Shown: one piece after another, positions 1 through 7,523 of the stretch
Layout: every line of letters starts with the position of its first letter
Position numbering within the stretch: position 1 is the first letter of the stretch
Source: a virus
Lineage: Duplodnaviria > Heunggongvirae > Uroviricota > Caudoviricetes
Strand: one strand, 5' to 3'
DNA length: 7,523 nt
Virus record (IMG/VR): IMGVR_UViG_2609460344_000014
Coordinates: 1-7,523 of that record
Notes under the pieces: generated by a model
Told to the model about the DNA's origin: nothing
What the model saw: the letters and a program-made list of their open reading frames with translations, nothing else
Databases searched by the model: none
Translations under genes and position numbers: made by a program

Positions 1-177
1 CAAAACGTGAAGTAATATTTCAGTTGGCGAATAATATCCGACAGTAATCACTCTGCGCAATAGCGCGGCCTTTTTCGTATTGCGGGCTGTTGTCTATCTT
101 CTGCCATTGTCCTGTAACTTCCGGACTTCAGCCCGCTCCTCATTTTACTCACAATATTATCCAGGCCGGGAGGATTC

Positions 178-2121
178 ATGGCATTTAAACACTATGACGT
201 GGTCAGGGCGGCGTCGCCGTCAGACCTTGCGGAGCGACTGACACAAAAACTGAAGGAAGGCTGGCAGCCGTTTGGCAGTCCTGTGGCTATCACGCCTTAT
301 ACACTGATGCAGGCCATTGCCGCAGAGGGTGATGTGACCACGCCTGTGGTTGTGCCCGACACAGGGGCTGGTGGCTCTCCGGGAGTGGCTACCACTGAAC
401 CGGAGTATTACTACGTTATTCCCCAGGCCGGGCAGTCGAACGGTATGGCCTATGGTGAGGGGCTTCCTCTGCCGGAGACCTATGATCGCCCTGACTCCCG
501 TATTAAGCAGCTGGCCCGTCGCAGCACTGTGACGCCGGGTGGTGATACCTGTGCATACAATGACGTTATTCCGGCAGACCACTGTCTGCATGATGTTCAG
601 GACATGAGCGCACTTAACCATCCTCATGCAGACCTGAGTAAGGGCCAGTACGGGACTGTCGGTCAGGGGCTGCATATTGCCAAAAAACTGCTGCCTTATA
701 TCCCGCAGAATGCCGGGATTCTTCTGGTGCCCTGTTGCCGTGGCGGGTCTGGTTTAACCGTGGGTAATGACGGCACGTTCAGCGAAACGTCTGGCGCATC
801 GGCAAATTCAGCCCGCTGGGGAGTGGGTAAACCGCTGTATCAGGATTTTCTCTTCCGTACAAAAGCGGCGCTGTCGAAGAACCCGAAAAACAGGCTTCTG
901 GCCGTGGTATGGATGCAGGGGGAAAATGATCTTGCGGACGGCAGTCAGCAGCACAGCGGCCTGTTTACCACTATGGTGCAGCAGTTCAGGGCTGATATGG
1001 CTGCATATTCTGCACAGTGTGTTGGCGGAAGTGCTGGCTCGGTGCCGTGGATTTGTGGTGACACCACGTATTACTGGAAGAATCTTAACGCCGATAAATA
1101 TGAGGCGGTATATGGCGGTTACAAGGGCAGGGAAGCACAGAATATTTTCTTTGTTCCTTTTATGACGGATGAGAATGGACAGAGCACGCCAACGAATGCT
1201 CCGGCGGAAGACCCGGATATTGTGGCTGTCGGGTATTACGGTGCAGCATCCCGAACCCAGGGCAGTTTTGTTTCGACACAGCGTGACAGCCATTTCAGCT
1301 CATGGGCACGCAGGGGCGTCATTTCAGACCGTCTGGCCTCAGCTATTATGCTCCATGCAGGGCGCACGGCTGAATTGATGCGCGGGCAGACCGTGACACC
1401 ACCGGATGAGAAGCCGTCACCTGATACACCATCAAAACCGTCCACGCCACCCGCAGACACCACGACGATGAGTACGCTATTTGCTTACCGGGCATCTGAG
1501 TCTGAAGGACGGTTGACACCACAGGGTTGGGCTGCCGGAGGTGGCAAGGCTCAAATCGTGGATGATGCCGGAGCCAGCGGGGGTAAGGCAATGAAACTGA
1601 CCAAGGAAACAGGAAGAGCCCCCTGGTACCTTGAGCATGATGCTGGTAATGGTGCGGACCTGCTGGGTAAAGGTGGTCTTGTCAGTTGTCGTTTTAAACT
1701 CGATGGCGCGCTTACGGCTAATCAGTACGCACTGGCGCTGTACTGGCCGGTTTCTTCATTGCCTCAGGGTGTCACACTGGAAGGTAATGCCGGTAACAAT
1801 CTGCTGGCGTCGTTTTACGTACAGAGCGATGCCACAGACCTCAACGTGATGTACCACAAGGGTAACGCTGACCAGAACACGAAGCTGGGGTCATTCGGCG
1901 CATTTGACAACGAATGGCATACGCTGGGTTTCCGTTTTGCCGGTAATAACAGCATTCAGGTGACGCCGGTGATTGATGGTCAGGATGGTGCACCGTTCAT
2001 GCTGTCGCAGTCTCCGGTAGGTTCTTTTGCGGCAGACAAATTACGTGTAACGGATATCACAAAAGCGGCGACGTATACGGTGCTGATTGAAAGTATAACA
2101 GTGGAAGTGAATAACCCGTAA
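178..2121 (+). CDS. nanS-p: Prophage-encoded sialate O-acetylesterase, NanS-p family (N-terminal DUF1737-like region, SGNH/SASA esterase core, C-terminal lectin-like domain)
   Basis: 647-aa ORF with GGGAGG 4 nt upstream of ATG 178. GQSN esterase signature (IPQAGQSNG, residues 85-88, nt 430-441). Length and three-part architecture match the large ORF found downstream of stx in lambdoid Stx phages (recalled, not searched). Position just upstream of the S holin is as expected. Confidence 0.85.
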   Translation: MAFKHYDVVRAASPSDLAERLTQKLKEGWQPFGSPVAITPYTLMQAIAAEGDVTTPVVVPDTGAGGSPGVATTEPEYYYVIPQAGQSNGMAYGEGLPLPETYDRPDSRIKQLARRSTVTPGGDTCAYNDVIPADHCLHDVQDMSALNHPHADLSKGQYGTVGQGLHIAKKLLPYIPQNAGILLVPCCRGGSGLTVGNDGTFSETSGASANSARWGVGKPLYQDFLFRTKAALSKNPKNRLLAVVWMQGENDLADGSQQHSGLFTTMVQQFRADMAAYSAQCVGGSAGSVPWICGDTTYYWKNLNADKYEAVYGGYKGREAQNIFFVPFMTDENGQSTPTNAPAEDPDIVAVGYYGAASRTQGSFVSTQRDSHFSSWARRGVISDRLASAIMLHAGRTAELMRGQTVTPPDEKPSPDTPSKPSTPPADTTTMSTLFAYRASESEGRLTPQGWAAGGGKAQIVDDAGASGGKAMKLTKETGRAPWYLEHDAGNGADLLGKGGLVSCRFKLDGALTANQYALALYWPVSSLPQGVTLEGNAGNNLLASFYVQSDATDLNVMYHKGNADQNTKLGSFGAFDNEWHTLGFRFAGNNSIQVTPVIDGQDGAPFMLSQSPVGSFAADKLRVTDITKAATYTVLIESITVEVNNP

Positions 2122-2269
2122 GCAGGAAAAAAAGACCGCCGTGGCAGGGAAAACAAGGAGCCAGAACCGGCGGCAGAAGTCGCTACATCCTTAGCAAAAA
2201 TATGCTGAGCAAAAAATGCAGGAGTTTTTTACTGGCAGGCATTGACCATGTCAATAATGGAGATGAATA

Positions 2270-2452
2270 ATGACATTTTTACAGCTGATTATGTTGTATT
2301 TCTGTACAGCAGTTTGTGTGCTGTATCTTCTTTCTGGTGGGTACAGAGTCGTGAGAGATTTCTGGCGCAGACAGATTGACAAAAGGGCCGCTGAGAAAAT
2401 CAGCGCCAGTCAGTCAGCCGGAACAAAACCCGAAGAGTCTCTCATTCCGTAG
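2270..2452 (+). CDS. Small single-pass membrane protein, 60 aa, unknown function
   Basis: ATG 2270 preceded by GGAG (2259-2262, 7-nt spacing). N-terminal hydrophobic helix (FLQLIMLYFCTAVCVLYLLSGG) followed by a basic tail. Same strand as flanking late genes. Confidence 0.45.
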   Translation: MTFLQLIMLYFCTAVCVLYLLSGGYRVVRDFWRRQIDKRAAEKISASQSAGTKPEESLIP

Positions 2453-2489
2453 CAACTTTCTTAACAACACCTTTCAACGAGAAAATACC

Positions 2490-2759
2490 ATGTCAGAAAT
2501 AAAATCGCTGGTCACTGCTGAAGCAGTGAAGGAAGTCCTGCGCTCTGAAGAAGTCAGAAGCGCACTGAAACAGCAACTTCGTCAGAATCTTGAGGCGCGT
2601 CTTGATGCTGAAGTGGATGCCATTCTGGATGAACTGCTGGGGGTACCGGCTGCTCCCGGGCCTGAAGACGGTGCGGGTGACAGTGCTGTTTCAGATGGTG
2701 TCGTGTCTCAGCCTGATGGTGGCAGTGAGCCTCAGCCTGACGGCGAAATGATGATGTAA
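2490..2759 (+). CDS. Hypothetical protein, 89 aa, helical N-terminus and acidic Gly/Pro/Asp-rich C-terminus
   Basis: Track ORF 2376-2759 overlaps the preceding ORF; the internal ATG 2490 (MSEIKSLVTAEAV...) gives a non-overlapping gene. Weak SD. Function not recognisable from sequence. Confidence 0.5.
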   Translation: MSEIKSLVTAEAVKEVLRSEEVRSALKQQLRQNLEARLDAEVDAILDELLGVPAAPGPEDGAGDSAVSDGVVSQPDGGSEPQPDGEMMM

Positions 2760-2834
2760 CCATGCGCAGGGGCTGTCGGTGTGAGCTGATGCCCCTCTTG
2801 TTGTTGTGAGCTTCCGGATTGCGGGAGACGGGGT

Positions 2835-3050
2835 ATGTACCAGATGGAAAAAATCACAACAGGTGTGTCATACACCACGTCAGCGGTGGGAACGGGCTAC
2901 TGGTTCCTGCAGTTGCTGGACAGGGTTTCCCCGTCTCAGTGGGCGGCAATAGGCGTGCTGGGGAGTCTGCTGTTTGGTCTGTTGACGTACCTGACGAACC
3001 TGTATTTCAAAATCAGAGAGGACCGTCGTAAGGCGGCACGGGGAGAGTAG
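2835..3050 (+). CDS. S: Class II holin, phage 21 S-type pinholin (71 aa) with dual-start motif
   Basis: Translation [71 protein letters not shown] closely matches S21-type holins as recalled. Two in-frame starts (ATG 2835 and ATG 2844, Met1/Met4) give the antiholin/holin pair. Two TMDs and a charged C-terminus. GGAG upstream. Confidence 0.9.
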
Positions 3051-3053
3051 GTG

Positions 3054-3134
3054 ATGAACCATGAAGAAATGAATCAGCGCTTCAGTCGTCTGGAAAATGA
3101 AATTGCTGAACTGAATAAAAACTGTCGGCGCTGA
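3054..3134 (+). CDS. Tiny ORF, 26 aa (MNHEEMNQRFSRLENEIAELNKNCRR), possibly a leader or coupling ORF or the detached N-terminus of the next gene
   Basis: Starts 4 nt after the holin stop, with GTG 3051 as an alternative start and GGGGAGAG upstream. Its TGA (3132-3134) overlaps the ATG (3134-3136) of the following 158-aa ORF, which has no SD of its own. Too short for the ORF track. Confidence 0.25.
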   Translation: MNHEEMNQRFSRLENEIAELNKNCRR

Positions 3135-3610
3135 TGCCTTCTGAAGATGAAAAAAAACGCCGCGATGAGCAGTTTGCTGCGTTTGACGATTATTGTCGGA
3201 AAGTGATGAGCAGAAATCTCGCAGAGTGTTTCAGTATTCATAATGATAATTTCAGTGAGCTGGAATGGGAGTGTAACCGGCCATCCTTTGTTGTATCCGG
3301 TGATGCTGGGAAAATAACCATCTCAGAAAATGGGAAAGTAACACCTCCATCGCACCAGCACAGTGAGGAGCTCATTGAATTTGCCATTGATTACCTGAAG
3401 AACAATAAAAAGCAGGGGCTGATGAAGCGCGTTGGCCGTTGCATGGGATATCTTCAGGTAGCCGCTGAGATTGAAGCGCTGGCCAGTGGTGCTGATAAGG
3501 ATGCAATTGTGCGGGAGGCTCTTCTTCGTGATTTTAATACTCCACCCTTTAAAAAAGTGCCGGCTTACTGGCTTCATCCGGGGCTGACTTATCTTAAAGT
3601 GCGTATTTAG
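3134..3610 (+). CDS. Hypothetical protein, 158 aa, inserted between holin and endolysin (candidate moron)
   Basis: Uninterrupted 158-aa ORF on the late-gene strand between S and R. No TM segment, no recognisable catalytic motif. Looks AT-richer by eye than S and R (not computed). Start coupled to the upstream tiny ORF through a TGATG overlap. Confidence 0.6.
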   Translation: MPSEDEKKRRDEQFAAFDDYCRKVMSRNLAECFSIHNDNFSELEWECNRPSFVVSGDAGKITISENGKVTPPSHQHSEELIEFAIDYLKNNKKQGLMKRVGRCMGYLQVAAEIEALASGADKDAIVREALLRDFNTPPFKKVPAYWLHPGLTYLKVRI

Positions 3611-3646
3611 TGGGCCAGGGACAGCGGCTGAATATTTAATATATCC

Positions 3647-4180
3647 ATGAACACCAAAATCAAATACGGCCTGTCGGCTGCCGTTCTGGCGCTGATTGCC
3701 GCTGGTGCGCCTGCGCCTGACATTCTCGACCAGTTTCTGGATGAAAAGGAAGGTAACCACACCACGGCATACCGTGATGGCGCGGGTATCTGGACCATCT
3801 GTCGCGGTGCCATTCTGGTGGATGGTAAACCTGTCGTCCCGGGCATGAAGTTGTCGAAGGAGAAATGCGACCAGGTTAACGCCATCGAACGTGATAAGGC
3901 GCTGGCATGGGTGGAGAAAAACATCAAAGTGCCATTGACCGAACCCCAGAAAGCGGGGATCGCGTCATTCTGTCCGTACAACATTGGTCCCGGTAAGTGT
4001 TTCCCGTCGACGTTTTACAGACGAATTAATGCTGGTGATCGCAGGGGAGCATGTGAGGCGATTCGCTGGTGGATTAAGGACGGTGGCAGAGACTGCCGTA
4101 TTCGTTCAAACAACTGCTACGGTCAGGTATCCCGTCGTGACCAGGAGAGCGCGCTGGCGTGCTGGGGTATCGACAGATAA
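3647..4180 (+). CDS. R: SAR endolysin, T4-lysozyme-like (GH24) muramidase, 177 aa
   Basis: N-terminal weakly hydrophobic Gly/Ala-rich signal-anchor-release segment (LSAAVLALIAAGAPA) followed by an E...D...T catalytic triad spacing (EGNHTTAYRDGAGIWT). Pairing with a pinholin is the expected arrangement. No obvious SD before ATG 3647. Confidence 0.9.
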   Translation: MNTKIKYGLSAAVLALIAAGAPAPDILDQFLDEKEGNHTTAYRDGAGIWTICRGAILVDGKPVVPGMKLSKEKCDQVNAIERDKALAWVEKNIKVPLTEPQKAGIASFCPYNIGPGKCFPSTFYRRINAGDRRGACEAIRWWIKDGGRDCRIRSNNCYGQVSRRDQESALACWGIDR

Positions 4181-4269
4181 GCAGAATATTTTGCTGAAAA
4201 ATAAGGCATGGCCACGCGGGCGGATAACATGAAATCCTGCGAACTGGCGAAACGTAAGTGAATAAAAGT

Positions 4270-4308
4270 AAAAACCCCGTTTGTTGGCAGCAAGCGGGGT
4301 TTTGTTTT
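4270..4308. terminator. Rho-independent-type hairpin (aaaaCCCCG, 15-nt loop, CGGGGtttt, then gttttt), potentially bidirectional
   Basis: GC stem CCCCG/CGGGG (4274-4278 / 4294-4298) extended by A:U pairs, followed by a T-run on the + strand. The complementary strand also has T-rich sequence after the stem. Lies about 90 nt downstream of the R stop. Confidence 0.5.
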
Positions 4309-4374
4309 TATGGCAGTAAGCTATGGGAGGCTGCCTTGATTGATTTTAGCAAACTGATTAGGGAGTTGCGACTC

Positions 4375-4470
4375 ATGATTAGTCAATTACCAAACTGGAA
4401 ATTTTTGCTGGTCTGGAGCATCCCTTTTTTATGGGTAGTATCCCAGTTAATTGTGGCAATTAAGGGGTAG
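4375..4470 (+). CDS. Small hydrophobic peptide, 31 aa (MISQLPNWKFLLVWSIPFLWVVSQLIVAIKG)
   Basis: ATG 4375 with AGGGAG (4360-4365) upstream. Predicted single TM helix. First of four back-to-back tiny ORFs between R and Rz. Confidence 0.35.
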   Translation: MISQLPNWKFLLVWSIPFLWVVSQLIVAIKG

Positions 4471-4472
4471 CT

Positions 4473-4604
4473 ATGTCAGACAAACTCATAACGCCGGCAA
4501 AGGTCCTGTGTGTGATTGTCGGTATTTCATTTTCACTAATGCTGGTTGCTCTTTTTCTGTCCCTCGCCTGGGTGATGTTGTCTTCGTCGGGGCTGCTGGG
4601 GTGA
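4473..4604 (+). CDS. Small hydrophobic peptide, 43 aa (MSDKLITPAKVLCVIVGISFSLMLVALFLSLAWVMLSSSGLLG)
   Basis: ATG 4473 with AAGGGG (4462-4467) at 5-nt spacing. Begins 2 nt after the previous ORF's stop. Single predicted TM helix. Confidence 0.4.
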   Translation: MSDKLITPAKVLCVIVGISFSLMLVALFLSLAWVMLSSSGLLG

Positions 4605-4606
4605 CA

Positions 4607-4723
4607 GTGACTGATGACATCAGCAGAGCGCTGGCTTTTGCTATTAAGTGGGTGGCTGTTGGTATTGCTGTGTCTCCGATGCTGTATGGGCTGGCTAAAC
4701 TGGTCATTGCGCTGAAATCGTGA
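4607..4723 (+). CDS. Small hydrophobic peptide, 38 aa (GTG start; ..TDDISRALAFAIKWVAVGIAVSPMLYGLAKLVIALKS), possible paralogue of the next ORF
   Basis: GTG 4607 (alternative GTG 4601 overlaps the upstream TGA). Codon-by-codon alignment with ORF 4735-4821 shows a shared AFAI(K/R)xVA core with synonymous third-position differences (gct/gca, gct/gcc, gtg/gtc). Start and frame are uncertain because other frames here are also hydrophobic. Confidence 0.3.
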   Translation: MTDDISRALAFAIKWVAVGIAVSPMLYGLAKLVIALKS

Positions 4724-4734
4724 ACTTTAAAAAG

Positions 4735-4821
4735 ATGAGTGCTGAACTTATTCGGGCAATGGCATTTGCCATTCGTATTGTGGCCATTGCTGTTCTGGTC
4801 TGGGCAATCCGTTGGTGGTGA
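4735..4821 (+). CDS. Small hydrophobic peptide, 28 aa ([28 protein letters not shown])
   Basis: ATG 4735. Stop TGA 4819-4821 lies 1 nt before the Rz ATG (4823) and overlaps the Rz SD (GGTGGTG). Resembles the preceding ORF at peptide level. Confidence 0.3.
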
Positions 4822-4822
4822 T

Positions 4823-5290
4823 ATGAACCGTGTTCTGTGTGTGGTGATTATTGTCCTGCTGGTAGCCTGTGGTGTGCTTAGTCTGGGGCTGAATCATTAC
4901 CGCGATAACGCCATCACCTACAAAGCGCAGCGCGATAAAAAAGTCAGTGAGCTGAAACTGGCGAATGCCACTATTACTGATATGCAGCAGCGCCAGCGCG
5001 ATGTTGCTGCGCTCGATGCAAAATACTCGAGGGAATTAGCCGATGCGAGAGCTGAAAATGAAACTCTGCGTGCTGATGTTGCCGCTGGTCGTAAGCGCCT
5101 GCGGGTCAACGCCACCTGCCCCGGTACCGTGCGTGAAGCCACCGGCACCTCCAGCGTGGATAATGCAACCGGCCCCCGACTGGCAGACACCGCTGAACGG
5201 GATTATTTCATCCTCAGAGAACGGTTGATGACAATGCAGAAGCAGCTGGAAGGGGCGCAGGAATATATCCGCACTCAGTGCCTGAAATAA
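4823..5290 (+). CDS. Rz: Rz i-spanin (inner-membrane spanin subunit), 155 aa
   Basis: Translation from ATG 4823 ([39 protein letters not shown]...[30 protein letters not shown]) is near-colinear with lambda Rz as recalled: N-terminal TMD plus coiled-coil periplasmic domain. The track ORF at 4739 is a GTG-extended version. Confidence 0.9.
5043..5228 (+). CDS. Rz1: Rz1 o-spanin lipoprotein, embedded in +1 frame within Rz
   Basis: 61-aa ORF wholly inside Rz. Signal peptide with lipobox (LPLVVSAC) and proline-rich mature part ([35 protein letters not shown]), matching lambda Rz1 as recalled. ATG 5058 is an alternative start. Confidence 0.85.
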
Positions 5291-5332
5291 GTTTTGTTGA
5301 TGCGCCGTATCGTCGCTGTATTCCCTCATTAA

Positions 5333-6237
<905 letters not shown>

Positions 6238-6244
6238 GGAGGTC

Positions 6245-6853
6245 ATGGTGGATAAGGGAAAAGAGATTATTGCAGTACGAAATGCAGCCTGCAACGAATA
6301 CGGCGGGATAAACTGTGAGGTGCAGTTTGAAGATGCGGTCAATGAAAAAGGAGAGCAGGTATGGCTGCCGTATACCGCAACGGAAACGGATAATACAGAA
6401 CACGGAAAAGCCTTGTGGTCGGGGCTGACAGCAGGAACATACGGAAGTGTGAGTGCCTTTGTTGCCACGGAAGCAATACTGGAAGCGGCAAAGGCGGCGA
6501 AAAGGGAAGAGATTAATATCTGGCGTGATGTGCAGGAGAATATGGAATACGTGATGGAATTCAACGGAAGGAACTGGGATTACGGCAAGAAGACGTTGTC
6601 CAGGATAAGCACGACACGACTGATGGCAGAGAACAACCGTCTTCCGGAAGGGTTTGCCTGGACGGACGGGGATAATAATGTGGTGCCGGTAACGGCGGCG
6701 GAGATAATTGCGCTGGCAGATGCGACAGAGCAGGCGATGTTTGCGAAAGGTGTGGAGATTAATACACGTCAGCTTCAGATGAAAGCAGAGGTTGAGGCGC
6801 TGACAGAGCTGAAGGCGATCCGCAGTTATGTTGTCGGATGGCCTGCAAGCTGA
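6245..6853 (+). CDS. Probable tail-fibre assembly (chaperone-like) protein, 202 aa
   Basis: Begins 8 nt after the tail-fibre stop, with GAGGAGG (6236-6242) overlapping that stop; GTG 6248 is an alternative start. Position immediately 3' of a tail-fibre gene and size are typical of tfa genes. Family assignment is from context and general resemblance, not a search. Confidence 0.5.
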   Translation: MVDKGKEIIAVRNAACNEYGGINCEVQFEDAVNEKGEQVWLPYTATETDNTEHGKALWSGLTAGTYGSVSAFVATEAILEAAKAAKREEINIWRDVQENMEYVMEFNGRNWDYGKKTLSRISTTRLMAENNRLPEGFAWTDGDNNVVPVTAAEIIALADATEQAMFAKGVEINTRQLQMKAEVEALTELKAIRSYVVGWPAS

Positions 6854-6855
6854 GT

Positions 6856-6884
6856 AAAAAAAACGGGACCACGGCCAGTCCCGG
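6856..6884 (-). terminator. Hairpin (CGGGAC, 8-nt loop, GTCCCG) flanked by an A8 tract: canonical intrinsic terminator for minus-strand transcription, possibly bidirectional
   Basis: Stem 6864-6869 / 6878-6883. On the minus strand the hairpin is followed directly by UUUUUUUU (complement of 6856-6863). On the + strand a T-run (6894-6899) follows after about 10 nt. Sits between the convergent tfa-like gene and ykgJ-like gene. Confidence 0.5.
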
Positions 6885-6997
6885 AACCATGAGTTTTTTA
6901 GGGTATTAGTTTGTTATCATAATTAGCGTGCTAAGTATGCCGTATCAGGCTGATTAGTGAAGTGATGTTGTTCGCATTTTTGCACGGCGGAGAATAT

Positions 6998-7327
6998 TCA
7001 GATTTTGGGAAATCCATATTTTTCCCGTGCGCGGTTACATGCTTCATTCGCGATGCCATTTTCGCCGGACATTGCGAATTCCCTGCATGTGGACGGACGG
7101 TTTTTGTAAACAGAGCAATATGCGTTTTCACCGGGGGGGCCGGCCAGAGCGACACATCGGGGATTTTTCTGATTGGTGCCGCGCATACAGCGATGAAAAG
7201 GAGATATTTGCTCAGTGAGACTGACCGGGACGTTTCCGCCAGCATCATCGGCTTCAGCCCAGTAAAAAGAGACGCGGAAAAATGCACAACAGGCACCACA
7301 CGTCATGCATGGATTCGGATTGTTCAT
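6998..7327 (-). CDS. ykgJ: YkgJ-family cysteine-cluster protein (putative zinc/iron-chelating CxxCxxCC domain), 109 aa
   Basis: Minus-strand ORF; start at the internal Met ([28 protein letters not shown]...) gives 109 aa with the CMTCGACC motif, matching E. coli YkgJ in length and motif as recalled. The track ORF extends to 7384 ([19 protein letters not shown]... extension), but that upstream ATG has GGAG only 1 nt away. Confidence 0.75.
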
Positions 7328-7425
7328 TTTTATACTATTTGTTGTTTTTTCAGCGATCAGATAAAAGGGCGCTGAAAAAAACATTCTCCAAAATTAGATT
7401 ATAACTATTTGATTTTATGGATAGA

Positions 7426-7459
7426 GGCATGCTTTTTACGAAAAAGTAAAAAGCATGCC
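7426..7459. repeat. Perfect 12-bp inverted repeat (GGCATGCTTTTT, 10-nt spacer, AAAAAGCATGCC)
   Basis: Exact reverse-complement arms at 7426-7437 and 7448-7459, in the region upstream of the minus-strand ykgJ-like gene. Function is not determinable from sequence: hairpin, protein-binding site or terminator for a gene beyond the window. Confidence 0.5.
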
Positions 7460-7523
7460 AAATTTGCCATTAACTCTTTGAATATTCAGCACTAATCATC
7501 TATTTCGGTTGCCTTCTTATTCA

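Follow-up and report, generated by a model that had tools for sequence, protein, structure and literature searches.

Lysis of Gram-negative hosts by phages is usually framed as three functions, which are fulfilled by holin, endolysin and spanin. Small membrane-associated lysis regulators such as the antiholins lambda S107, S21-71, T4 RI and P1 LydB are also encoded in lysis clusters, and phage P2 carries a gene between those for the endolysin K and the spanins LysB/LysC which codes for the membrane protein LysA, a polytopic, non-essential lysis-timing factor of about 140 amino acids (aa). A small membrane-associated regulator of signal-arrest-release (SAR) endolysin and holin activity is the releasin gp25 of phage Mu (DUF2730), which is likewise encoded in the lysis cluster (PMC9239132), and the Shewanella phage LambdaSo requires the 65-aa transmembrane protein Lcc6 for lysis via pinholin and SAR endolysin; Lcc6 is essential, is encoded far from the lysis genes and consists of an N-terminal transmembrane segment and a 43-aa cytoplasmic tail (10.1101/2024.01.23.576932). 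Here, we describe four small open reading frames (ORFs) between the endolysin gene R and the spanin genes Rz/Rz1 in a stretch of 7,523 nucleotides (nt) of a Caudoviricetes virus (IMG/VR record IMGVR_UViG_2609460344_000014, positions 1 to 7,523; the window), which represents the late region of a lambdoid E. coli prophage resembling Shiga toxin (Stx) phages.

The comparative analysis indicates that these ORFs are real and conserved genes for small membrane proteins, found repeatedly in many prophages of enterobacteria, Stx phages among them, in the interval from the endolysin to the spanin genes. We directly observed the conservation of the ORFs, purifying selection specific for their reading frames, the modular shuffling of the units and their fixed position abutting the spanin start. 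The best explanation, which we hold with about even confidence, is that they represent genuine small genes of three recurrent families, coding for late-made and dispensable tail-anchored peptides of the inner membrane which would tune lysis. The peptides are probably accessory lysis factors, and a role as holin- or antiholin-like lysis modulators, as proposed in a preliminary description of the window, is plausible from their position. The three families are o1 (phrog_6632), o2 (phrog_4906) and o3/o4 (phrog_1115/4493/3246), and the module is arranged in the window as follows.

4271–4303, no strand assigned: strong hairpin between an A-run and a T-run, with the shape of a bidirectional intrinsic terminator (terminator scan), heading the small-ORF module
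4336–4470, plus strand: ORF1 (o1), longer form of 44 aa from TTG 4336, with the Shine-Dalgarno (SD) sequence GGGAGG at 4325–4330
4375–4470, plus strand: ORF1 in the form of the preliminary description, ATG 4375 to TAG 4470, 31 aa
4473–4604, plus strand: ORF2 (o2), 43 aa, exceeding the other three in hydrophobicity, predicted as single-pass protein with cytoplasmic N-terminus
4607–4723, plus strand: ORF3 (o3'), GTG 4607 to TGA 4723, 38 aa, or 40 aa from GTG 4601, which overlaps the stop codon of ORF2 as GTGA
4735–4821, plus strand: ORF4 (o4), ATG 4735 to TGA 4821, 28 aa, or 33 aa from GTG 4720, which overlaps the stop codon of ORF3

Like LysA of phage P2, these ORFs are located between endolysin and spanin genes, code for predicted inner-membrane products and appear to be dispensable; unlike the polytopic LysA, their products are single-helix peptides of 28–60 aa occurring in arrays, and no sequence relationship to LysA was detected, with no lysis annotation retrieved from Pfam or PHROG. 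They resemble Lcc6 as very small single-pass membrane proteins alongside a system of pinholin, SAR endolysin and spanins, but differ from it in being tail-anchored, encoded inside the cassette and dispensable, a comparison drawn from the published description of Lcc6. With releasin and the antiholins, they share the small size, the membrane association and the location in a lysis gene cluster, whereas no match to DUF2730 or any holin family of Pfam (E up to 1) and no homology to releasin was found for the four peptides. Because the families also occur together with a soluble GH19 endolysin and a lambda-S-type holin, they are not specific for SAR endolysins. A charged hydrophilic C-terminal domain following the transmembrane segment, as in holins, is absent: the peptides stop 1–3 residues past the helix (KG, KS, RWW) or in an uncharged tail. 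None of the four contains a periplasmic extension or a lipobox as expected for spanins, and Rz/Rz1 follow separately. Finally, their net charge of +1 to +3, the low hydrophobic moment of ORF2 (0.20) and the spanin genes next door do not fit a disruptin of the type of phiKT gp28, which combines a strongly cationic amphipathic helix with the replacement of spanins.

The basic observations of the preliminary description were reproduced, namely four ORFs of 31, 43, 38 and 28 aa as called on the same strand between R and Rz/Rz1, separated from each other and from Rz by gaps of 2, 2, 11 and 1 nt, strong SD sequences in front of the first two (AGGGAG at 4361–4366 and AAGGGG at 4462–4467), and one hydrophobic helix per ORF according to hydropathy. 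Its reservation that other frames of this compositionally biased DNA are also hydrophobic, leaving the frame uncertain, did not hold, as the proposed frames clearly exceed all others (grand average of hydropathy, GRAVY, of 1.16–1.64 vs. at most 0.79 elsewhere). In the four ORFs, T is enriched at the second codon position (0.42–0.53), which is a signature of sequences coding for membrane helices. The helix of ORF2 is as hydrophobic as the Rz anchor, while those of ORF1, ORF3 and ORF4 are marginal and about equal to the lysozyme's own anchor. All families are predicted to share the same topology, in which a short N-terminus with positive charge lies in the cytoplasm and a transmembrane helix occupies the extreme C-terminus. 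The peptides of 28–60 aa are accordingly tail-anchored with the N-terminus inside, have a high mean hydrophobicity and expose almost nothing outside of the membrane. Tiling of the 447 nt with short ORFs is only weakly unusual, with the observed coverage being reached in 4.5% of dinucleotide shuffles; therefore, the case must rest on comparative evidence.

All four ORFs match PHROG families, which belong to three families of unknown function, and the preliminary description missed that the proteins are already catalogued there and as hypothetical proteins. The same proteins are present among the members of phrog_6632, phrog_4906 and phrog_1115/4493/3246 and as the RefSeq entries WP_001280935.1, WP_042004856.1, WP_032140280.1 and WP_001043230.1 ("hypothetical protein"); the databases assign no function to them, and all names in the source databases are "hypothetical" or "uncharacterised". 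The PGAP/RefSeq annotation includes three to four of the ORFs as hypothetical proteins, with differing start sites: ORF1 is given as a 70-aa protein starting inside the hairpin and ORF3 as a 51-aa protein overlapping ORF2, neither of which is supported by the family alignments. No match for any of the four peptides was obtained in Pfam, NCBIfam or PADLOC (Pfam and PADLOC to E up to 1), and no Rfam match was found across the whole window (E up to 1). Full-text searches of the literature, directed at the peptide sequences as well as at small ORFs of lysis cassettes, retrieved no description of the peptides, and they are not mentioned in a survey of Stx-phage lysis cassettes or in the spanin census.

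To assess selection, substitutions were counted for each frame along minimum spanning trees of the distinct DNA variants, giving the following ratios of non-synonymous to synonymous substitutions (dN/dS) for the proposed frames.

ORF3 family: dN/dS 0.17–0.19, P 1e-14 to 1e-22, with 16/7/32 variable columns at the three codon positions
ORF4: dN/dS 0.48, P 0.013
ORF1: dN/dS 0.46, P 0.04, few sequences
ORF2: dN/dS 0.65, P 0.001, with 0.60 for the antisense frame sharing the wobble positions

The proposed frame showed the lowest or equal-lowest dN/dS in all families, and the purifying selection is specific for these frames. The sole rival was the wobble-sharing antisense frame, whose low values are a known artefact. 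The strand of ORF2 is settled by a strong and correctly spaced SD sequence in six different upstream contexts, together with its fixed start, stop and length. An antisense frame at 4486–4707, noted in the preliminary description, is indeed open, but does not represent a real antisense ORF: it is the wobble-sharing frame, in which a stop codon requires a Tyr, His or Gln codon on the sense strand. These codons are nearly absent, as ORF2 contains none of them and ORF3 a single Tyr codon in a non-stop context, and the frame stays open as a by-product. We also rejected this antisense ORF as a conserved unit, since ORF2 and ORF3 stand in the reverse order elsewhere.

ORF1 was present as described, while its start was probably misplaced. 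Homologues of 44–45 aa occur in five other genera (Citrobacter, Enterobacter, Klebsiella, Providencia and Salmonella), and share a conserved N-terminal sequence MIDFSKLIRELR with the invariant part (M/V)IDFSKLIRELR, which is encoded from TTG 4336 in the window. The match to phrog_6632 improves from E 6e-5 for the 31-aa reading to 1.3e-12 for the longer one, which covers positions 2–43 of 45 of the profile. ORF1 is most likely a 44-aa protein starting at TTG 4336 rather than the 31-aa version, and would be composed of a strongly amphipathic N-terminal helix (hydrophobic moment 0.60) and a C-terminal transmembrane helix. With the ORF3/4 family, it has only the C-terminal end LIxAI(K/R)(G/S or WW) in common (hhalign 83%, 16 columns), which could reflect either remote homology or an exchange of 3'-ends. 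An initial profile-profile match between these families (94%) was discarded as an artefact, because translation of the hairpin in over-extended entries generates spurious similarity between unrelated small-ORF families; except for the 16 columns, it disappeared after trimming. The deposited proteins P0042, P0377, P0242 and WP_001043230.1, which correspond to a reading of 4258–4470 in the window, begin inside or before the terminator hairpin (MNKSKNPVCWQQAGFCF...).

ORF2 matches phrog_4906 over its full length (E 4.5e-21, residues 1–43 on profile positions 7–49 of 49). Each of its 42 distinct cluster representatives is 43 aa long with a GRAVY of 1.09–1.82, and shows conservation over the N-terminal two thirds but a variable tail. 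An SD sequence precedes the gene in every context, and no in-frame stop was present in 24 DNA variants. Relatives were found in 276 phage records, most of which belong to Stx-converting phages. A scan of species-representative genomes with the ORF2 alignment yielded a single contig of 328 nt, which is labelled Xanthomonas pisi and possibly represents a contamination; therefore, ORF2 is essentially confined to E. coli and Shigella.

The idea that ORF3 and ORF4 contain a duplicated unit was borne out. Both share an AFAI(K/R)xVA core with synonymous differences (GCT/GCA, GCT/GCC and GCT/GCC), and they are paralogues of one family, with the intermediate protein P0242 bridging the types ending with ...ALKS and ...RWW. 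In its general form, this family combines a basic helix (MxKYKRILLRLT), which is optional, with the conserved segment MKNGLExDAP and a transmembrane helix which starts with A(F/W)AI(K/R) and finishes with ...ALKS or ...RWW. The family is small, with 24 matches among 1.84 billion cluster representatives in a profile search. According to the alignments, ORF3 and ORF4 both lack the N-terminal MKNGLExDAP motif of the full-length proteins and appear to be family members by homology in a truncated or short form. ORF3 matches phrog_1115 with E 1.2e-24, covering only profile positions 30–67 of 67, as well as phrog_3246 and phrog_4493, while ORF4 showed a weak match to phrog_4493 (E 3.8e-6) and is assigned by its sequence as a short ...RWW paralogue of ORF3.

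The comparison identifies ORF3 as a 5'-truncated copy of the gene for a protein of about 60 aa (o3L), a truncation missed in the preliminary description. It lacks the 22 N-terminal residues of o3L, and the homology starts at codon 23, which reads GTG in each of the 85 truncated copies, whereas the 93 full-length copies invariably have GTA or TTG. The end of ORF2 provides a GGGG sequence five bases upstream of this GTG, which fits with a translated minimal form of ORF3, the combination reflecting one ancestral event. An AlphaFold2 model based on the o3 family alignment (mean predicted local distance difference test score, pLDDT, of 75) contained a helix at residues 3–14, a linker and one long helix at 23–59, and the window ORF3 corresponds exactly to the latter. 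ORF3 is a truncated paralogue born of recombination, which may be either a minimal functional form or inert. For ORF4, we recorded one variant with an in-frame insertion of one codon; its translation would probably proceed by coupling, because it has no clear SD sequence.

These truncations raise the question of whether the array is recombination debris. The R-Rz junction would then be a hot spot for swapping modules, antirepressor genes included, and some or all of the ORFs, above all ORF3 and ORF4, would be inert leftovers which stay open only through the recent spread of the array. The loss of the N-terminal 22 residues with the conserved motif from ORF3 agrees with this, as do the only 11 variable sites from 4258 on in the 642-nt haplotypes with an equally conserved leader, the existence of frameshifted copies, the marginally non-random ORF tiling and the defective state of the window prophage. 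However, purifying selection on the full-length relatives is clear, several genera contain members of the families, and three other contexts harbour short genes of the ORF4 type whose ATG is conserved. The first codon of ORF3 is GTG only in the truncated copies, albeit from a single event, and the same array with ORF1 in its 31-aa form is present in a deposited complete phage genome. Overall, we regard this explanation as unlikely; it has to be taken seriously for ORF3, and to a lesser degree for ORF4.

The 642-nt interval between R and Rz is present with at least 80% coverage in 587 of 5,426 complete E. coli genomes and partially in 2,062. The deposited complete genome is that of phage PhiR5_1 (recorded host E. 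coli C), in which the array o1-o2-o3'-o4 follows an antirepressor-like gene. A comparison of gene architectures covering 185 loci showed that the units are shuffled as modules in many arrangements.

S-R-o3L-o2-Rz: O157:H7 and many others
S-R-o1-o2-o3'-o4-Rz: window type
Ant-o2-Rz: Stx phages
Ant-o3L-Rz, o3L-Rz, o3L-o4-Rz and o1-o2-Rz: further architectures
o1-o2-o3'-o2-Rz and o3L-o2-o3'-o4-Rz: further architectures

The units occur singly and in other orders, which excludes that the array is the decayed remnant of one larger gene. Their position is fixed on the spanin side, with the final small ORF ending at most 10 nt from the start of Rz in 174 of 178 cases, while the first one is always at least 150 nt away from R, with the hairpin located in that gap. 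In Salmonella, o3L always occurs immediately 5' of Rz, together with three different combinations of holin and endolysin (holin_2_3 or holin_2_1 with lysozyme, and a lambda-S-type holin with a soluble GH19 endolysin). Enterobacter has an o1-like gene between a GH19 endolysin gene followed by the same hairpin and an overlapped spanin gene pair of a different family. A conserved slot thus consists of the endolysin gene, a terminator-shaped hairpin, a short leader with an SD sequence, one to four small ORFs and the spanin genes, and extends over E. coli, Salmonella and Enterobacter with differing types of holin, endolysin and spanin.

Two further small genes were observed around this slot. An unannotated ORF of 48–50 aa (MMIKAETTPQGADDAAKIIVVCRGIRHILTPVAWIICTALVAYTTIYLNR) with one hydrophobic helix is located between ORF3- and ORF4-type genes (L089, 1644–1796; L092, about 1630–1779), its stop codon overlapping the ORF4 start as ATGA, and represents a further small-peptide family of the same slot. 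Moreover, a lipoprotein of 60–63 aa with the lipobox LLAGC and three Cys in the mature part is encoded directly 3' of the small ORFs in cassettes with M15 endolysins (L091, 1775–1957; L096, 1564–1782; L089, 1886–2008; a copy in L124 is at 4055–4216). It is no recognisable spanin, showing only a weak match to the NCBIfam model spanin2 (E 0.07), and we dismissed it as a spanin substitute in these cassettes, since L124 carries it as well, about 770 nt downstream of Rz.

The tight packing of the units also bears on a purely translational role, in which ribosome passage across the 640-nt insert would keep Rz/Rz1 expressed and the identity of the peptides would be irrelevant. The stop-to-start distances of −4 to 11 nt, including GTGA and ATGA overlaps, and the C-terminal RWW codons of ORF4 (TGGTGGTGA), which provide an SD-like sequence for Rz, are in accordance with such a relay. 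It does not account for the purifying selection at the amino acid level and the motifs conserved across genera, nor for the retention of the RWW end in Enterobacter, where the next gene carries its own GAGG 22 nt away, and we consider it highly improbable.

In E. coli, Salmonella and Enterobacter, the hairpin at 4271–4303 recurs 5' of o3L or of o1-like genes, also where a different gene lies upstream; it moves with the small-ORF module rather than with the gene before it. The outer stem of the hairpin does not vary, and the single inner-stem pair which was counted showed four pair types, indicating compensatory changes. Directly 3' of the R stop codon, positions 4196–4254 (within 4181–4310) occur as two diverged haplotypes with 23 variable sites in otherwise near-identical intervals, and contain a motif (ggcatggc.ccac.gggcggataaca..aaatcc) which is shared with Salmonella prophages; the conserved hairpin comes next, and no Rfam family was matched. 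This stretch could represent an RNA derived from the 3' untranslated region or a mere module junction.

The separation of the module from R by a terminator-shaped hairpin would suit morons expressed in the lysogen, with the peptides benefiting the host or excluding superinfecting phages and playing no role in lysis. Exclusion factors are often small membrane proteins, and the same site bears typical morons (antirepressor genes) in Stx phages. However, scans for a sigma-70-like promoter on the plus strand between the hairpin and the ORFs detected none in the window or the related modules, keeping in mind that consensus scans may miss weak ones. In addition, the ORFs are packed against Rz with gaps of 1–10 nt and gave no match to the defence-system models of PADLOC, which makes a moron function quite unlikely.

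The hairpin would be able to terminate transcription in both directions, which leads to the type I toxins considered in the preliminary description. The peptides would in this case be toxins controlled by a cis-antisense RNA which starts inside the array on the minus strand and ends at the hairpin. Their size and hydrophobicity resemble those of the toxins TisB, Ldr and Zor, and the similarity to type I toxins in general (TisB, Ldr, Hok, ZorO, Ibs) extends to length, a single hydrophobic helix (one in each peptide, at the GRAVY values given above), tandem copies and location in prophages. A promoter-like site occurs on the minus strand of the window at 4479–4450, and a minus-strand sequence TAGTCA-18-TATACT (9 of 12 positions) lies inside the o3L start in E. 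coli and Salmonella (L088, 1442–1471; L097, 4008–4037). Together with the bidirectional hairpin about 35 nt away, the latter would give rise to an antisense RNA about 70 nt long, which would span the SD sequence and start codon of o3L. Unlike type I toxin genes, however, the ORFs are embedded in an operon at a fixed position of the lysis cassette, have no promoters of their own, for which gaps of 1–11 nt leave no room, and lack a conserved antisense RNA gene, with no antitoxin matched in Rfam. The minus-strand promoter-like sites occur at the chance frequency of shuffled sequences and are not conserved between modules; they sit in protein-constrained sequence, the o3L site included, and are absent or differently placed in o1-like and o4-type modules. 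We found no consistent promoter for a sar-like antisense RNA and dropped this candidate as well. The toxin interpretation is not supported by these results and appears very unlikely, although such antisense control may still apply to o3L.

For the lysis-tuning peptides that we favour, the ORFs would be transcribed only with the late Q-antiterminated lysis transcript, which reads through the hairpin, and translated by coupling in a chain running into Rz. Since the peptides have hardly any soluble portion, they would exert their effect within the inner membrane via helix-helix contacts with the i-spanin, the holin or pinholin, or the SAR anchor, and would tune the timing or efficiency of lysis as dispensable accessory factors. 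We slightly lean to the i-spanin anchor as the partner, because the spanin pair is constant while the holin and endolysin types vary. As a more far-reaching proposal, which we put forward tentatively and consider rather unlikely, the unit of hairpin, leader, peptides and spanins would be a general and unrecognised part of enterobacterial lysis cassettes, in which the peptides bind to transmembrane segments of i-spanin or holin and set the timing or sharpness of the breach. The slot unit is present in most records of Stx-converting phages and in more than one third of the complete E. coli genomes.

Several points weigh against our best explanation. The constant spanin neighbourhood could be explained by linkage alone; the association may be mere genetic linkage because the small-ORF families also adjoin the small lipoprotein gene with no Rz nearby (L089, L091 and L096, with an M15 endolysin or in another context). 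The dN/dS of ORF2 is only 0.65, with the antisense frame performing equally well. Disrupted copies were found of o2 (about 11 of about 170 loci, by frameshift or truncation), o3' (in one phage, L003) and o1 (in one contig, L073), and the genes are dispensable as judged from these copies. Since the non-coding leader is as conserved as the ORFs, the window-type arrangement offers no independent evidence of selection. ORF3 is missing the most conserved N-terminal motif of its family, and ORF4 is without a recognisable SD sequence. The window prophage is a defective deletion remnant, as a tail-fibre gene remnant adjoins Rz/Rz1 with no terminase or head genes in between.

The remaining genes of the window include the other members of the lysis cassette.

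178–2121: NanS-p-type sialate esterase with the domains DUF1737, SASA and DUF6645
2376–2759: DUF826 protein
2835–3050, plus strand: S21-type class II holin (pinholin) of the same lysis cassette (Pfam Phage_holin_2_1, E 9e-33)
3134–3610: 158-aa protein without assigned function between holin and lysozyme
3647–4180, plus strand: SAR-type lysozyme R, upstream boundary of the slot (Pfam Phage_lysozyme, E 1.4e-24)
4823–5290, plus strand: Rz i-spanin, downstream boundary of the slot, ATG 4823 located 1 nt past ORF4 (Pfam Phage_lysis, E 3.6e-50)
5043–5228, plus strand: Rz1 o-spanin embedded in Rz (Pfam Rz1, E 1.7e-21)

The N-terminal Ala/Gly-rich segment of lysozyme R is weakly hydrophobic like SAR domains. 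The 158-aa protein matches only the C-terminal half of phrog_1085 (positions 141–296 of 296), and related prophages contain a YdfR-family gene or a gene for a 185-aa protein at this place, making the gap between holin and lysozyme a second variable slot of the cassette. Rz is immediately followed by a tail-fibre fragment which is frameshifted and carries collagen-like repeats, by a gene resembling those for tail-fibre assembly and by a CxxCxxCC gene of host type. The tail-fibre gene remnant spans 5291–6244, with a frame shift leading into the collagen-like GxY repeats at 5566–5966 (8.9 copies of a 45-nt unit). The prophage small RNAs PasA, PasC and PasD have been placed between a sialate esterase gene and the holin-lysozyme operon (10.64898/2026.05.13.724894). 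By position, the equivalent stretch in the window is 2122–2834, which contains a promoter-like site at 2242–2271 (10 of 12 matches) and a weak terminator-like hairpin at 2304–2326.

The finding is broader than could be seen from the window. Extra small membrane ORFs are as such unsurprising, while the conserved slot is worth the attention of lysis specialists: releasin and Lcc6 illustrate that small membrane proteins can be missing parts of the lysis picture, and the peptides described here belong to a lysis cassette carried by very common prophages. As they are short, conserved and readily deleted, the question can be addressed directly. If they are inert, they represent an example of recombination at a module junction which leaves small ORFs open that are then propagated by annotation pipelines. 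If they tune lysis, they would affect the timing of the phage burst as well as Shiga toxin release, a process dependent on lysis by the phage. As a general unit of the lysis cassette, if that proposal is true, they would influence both the timing and the amount of toxin and virion release in Stx phages.

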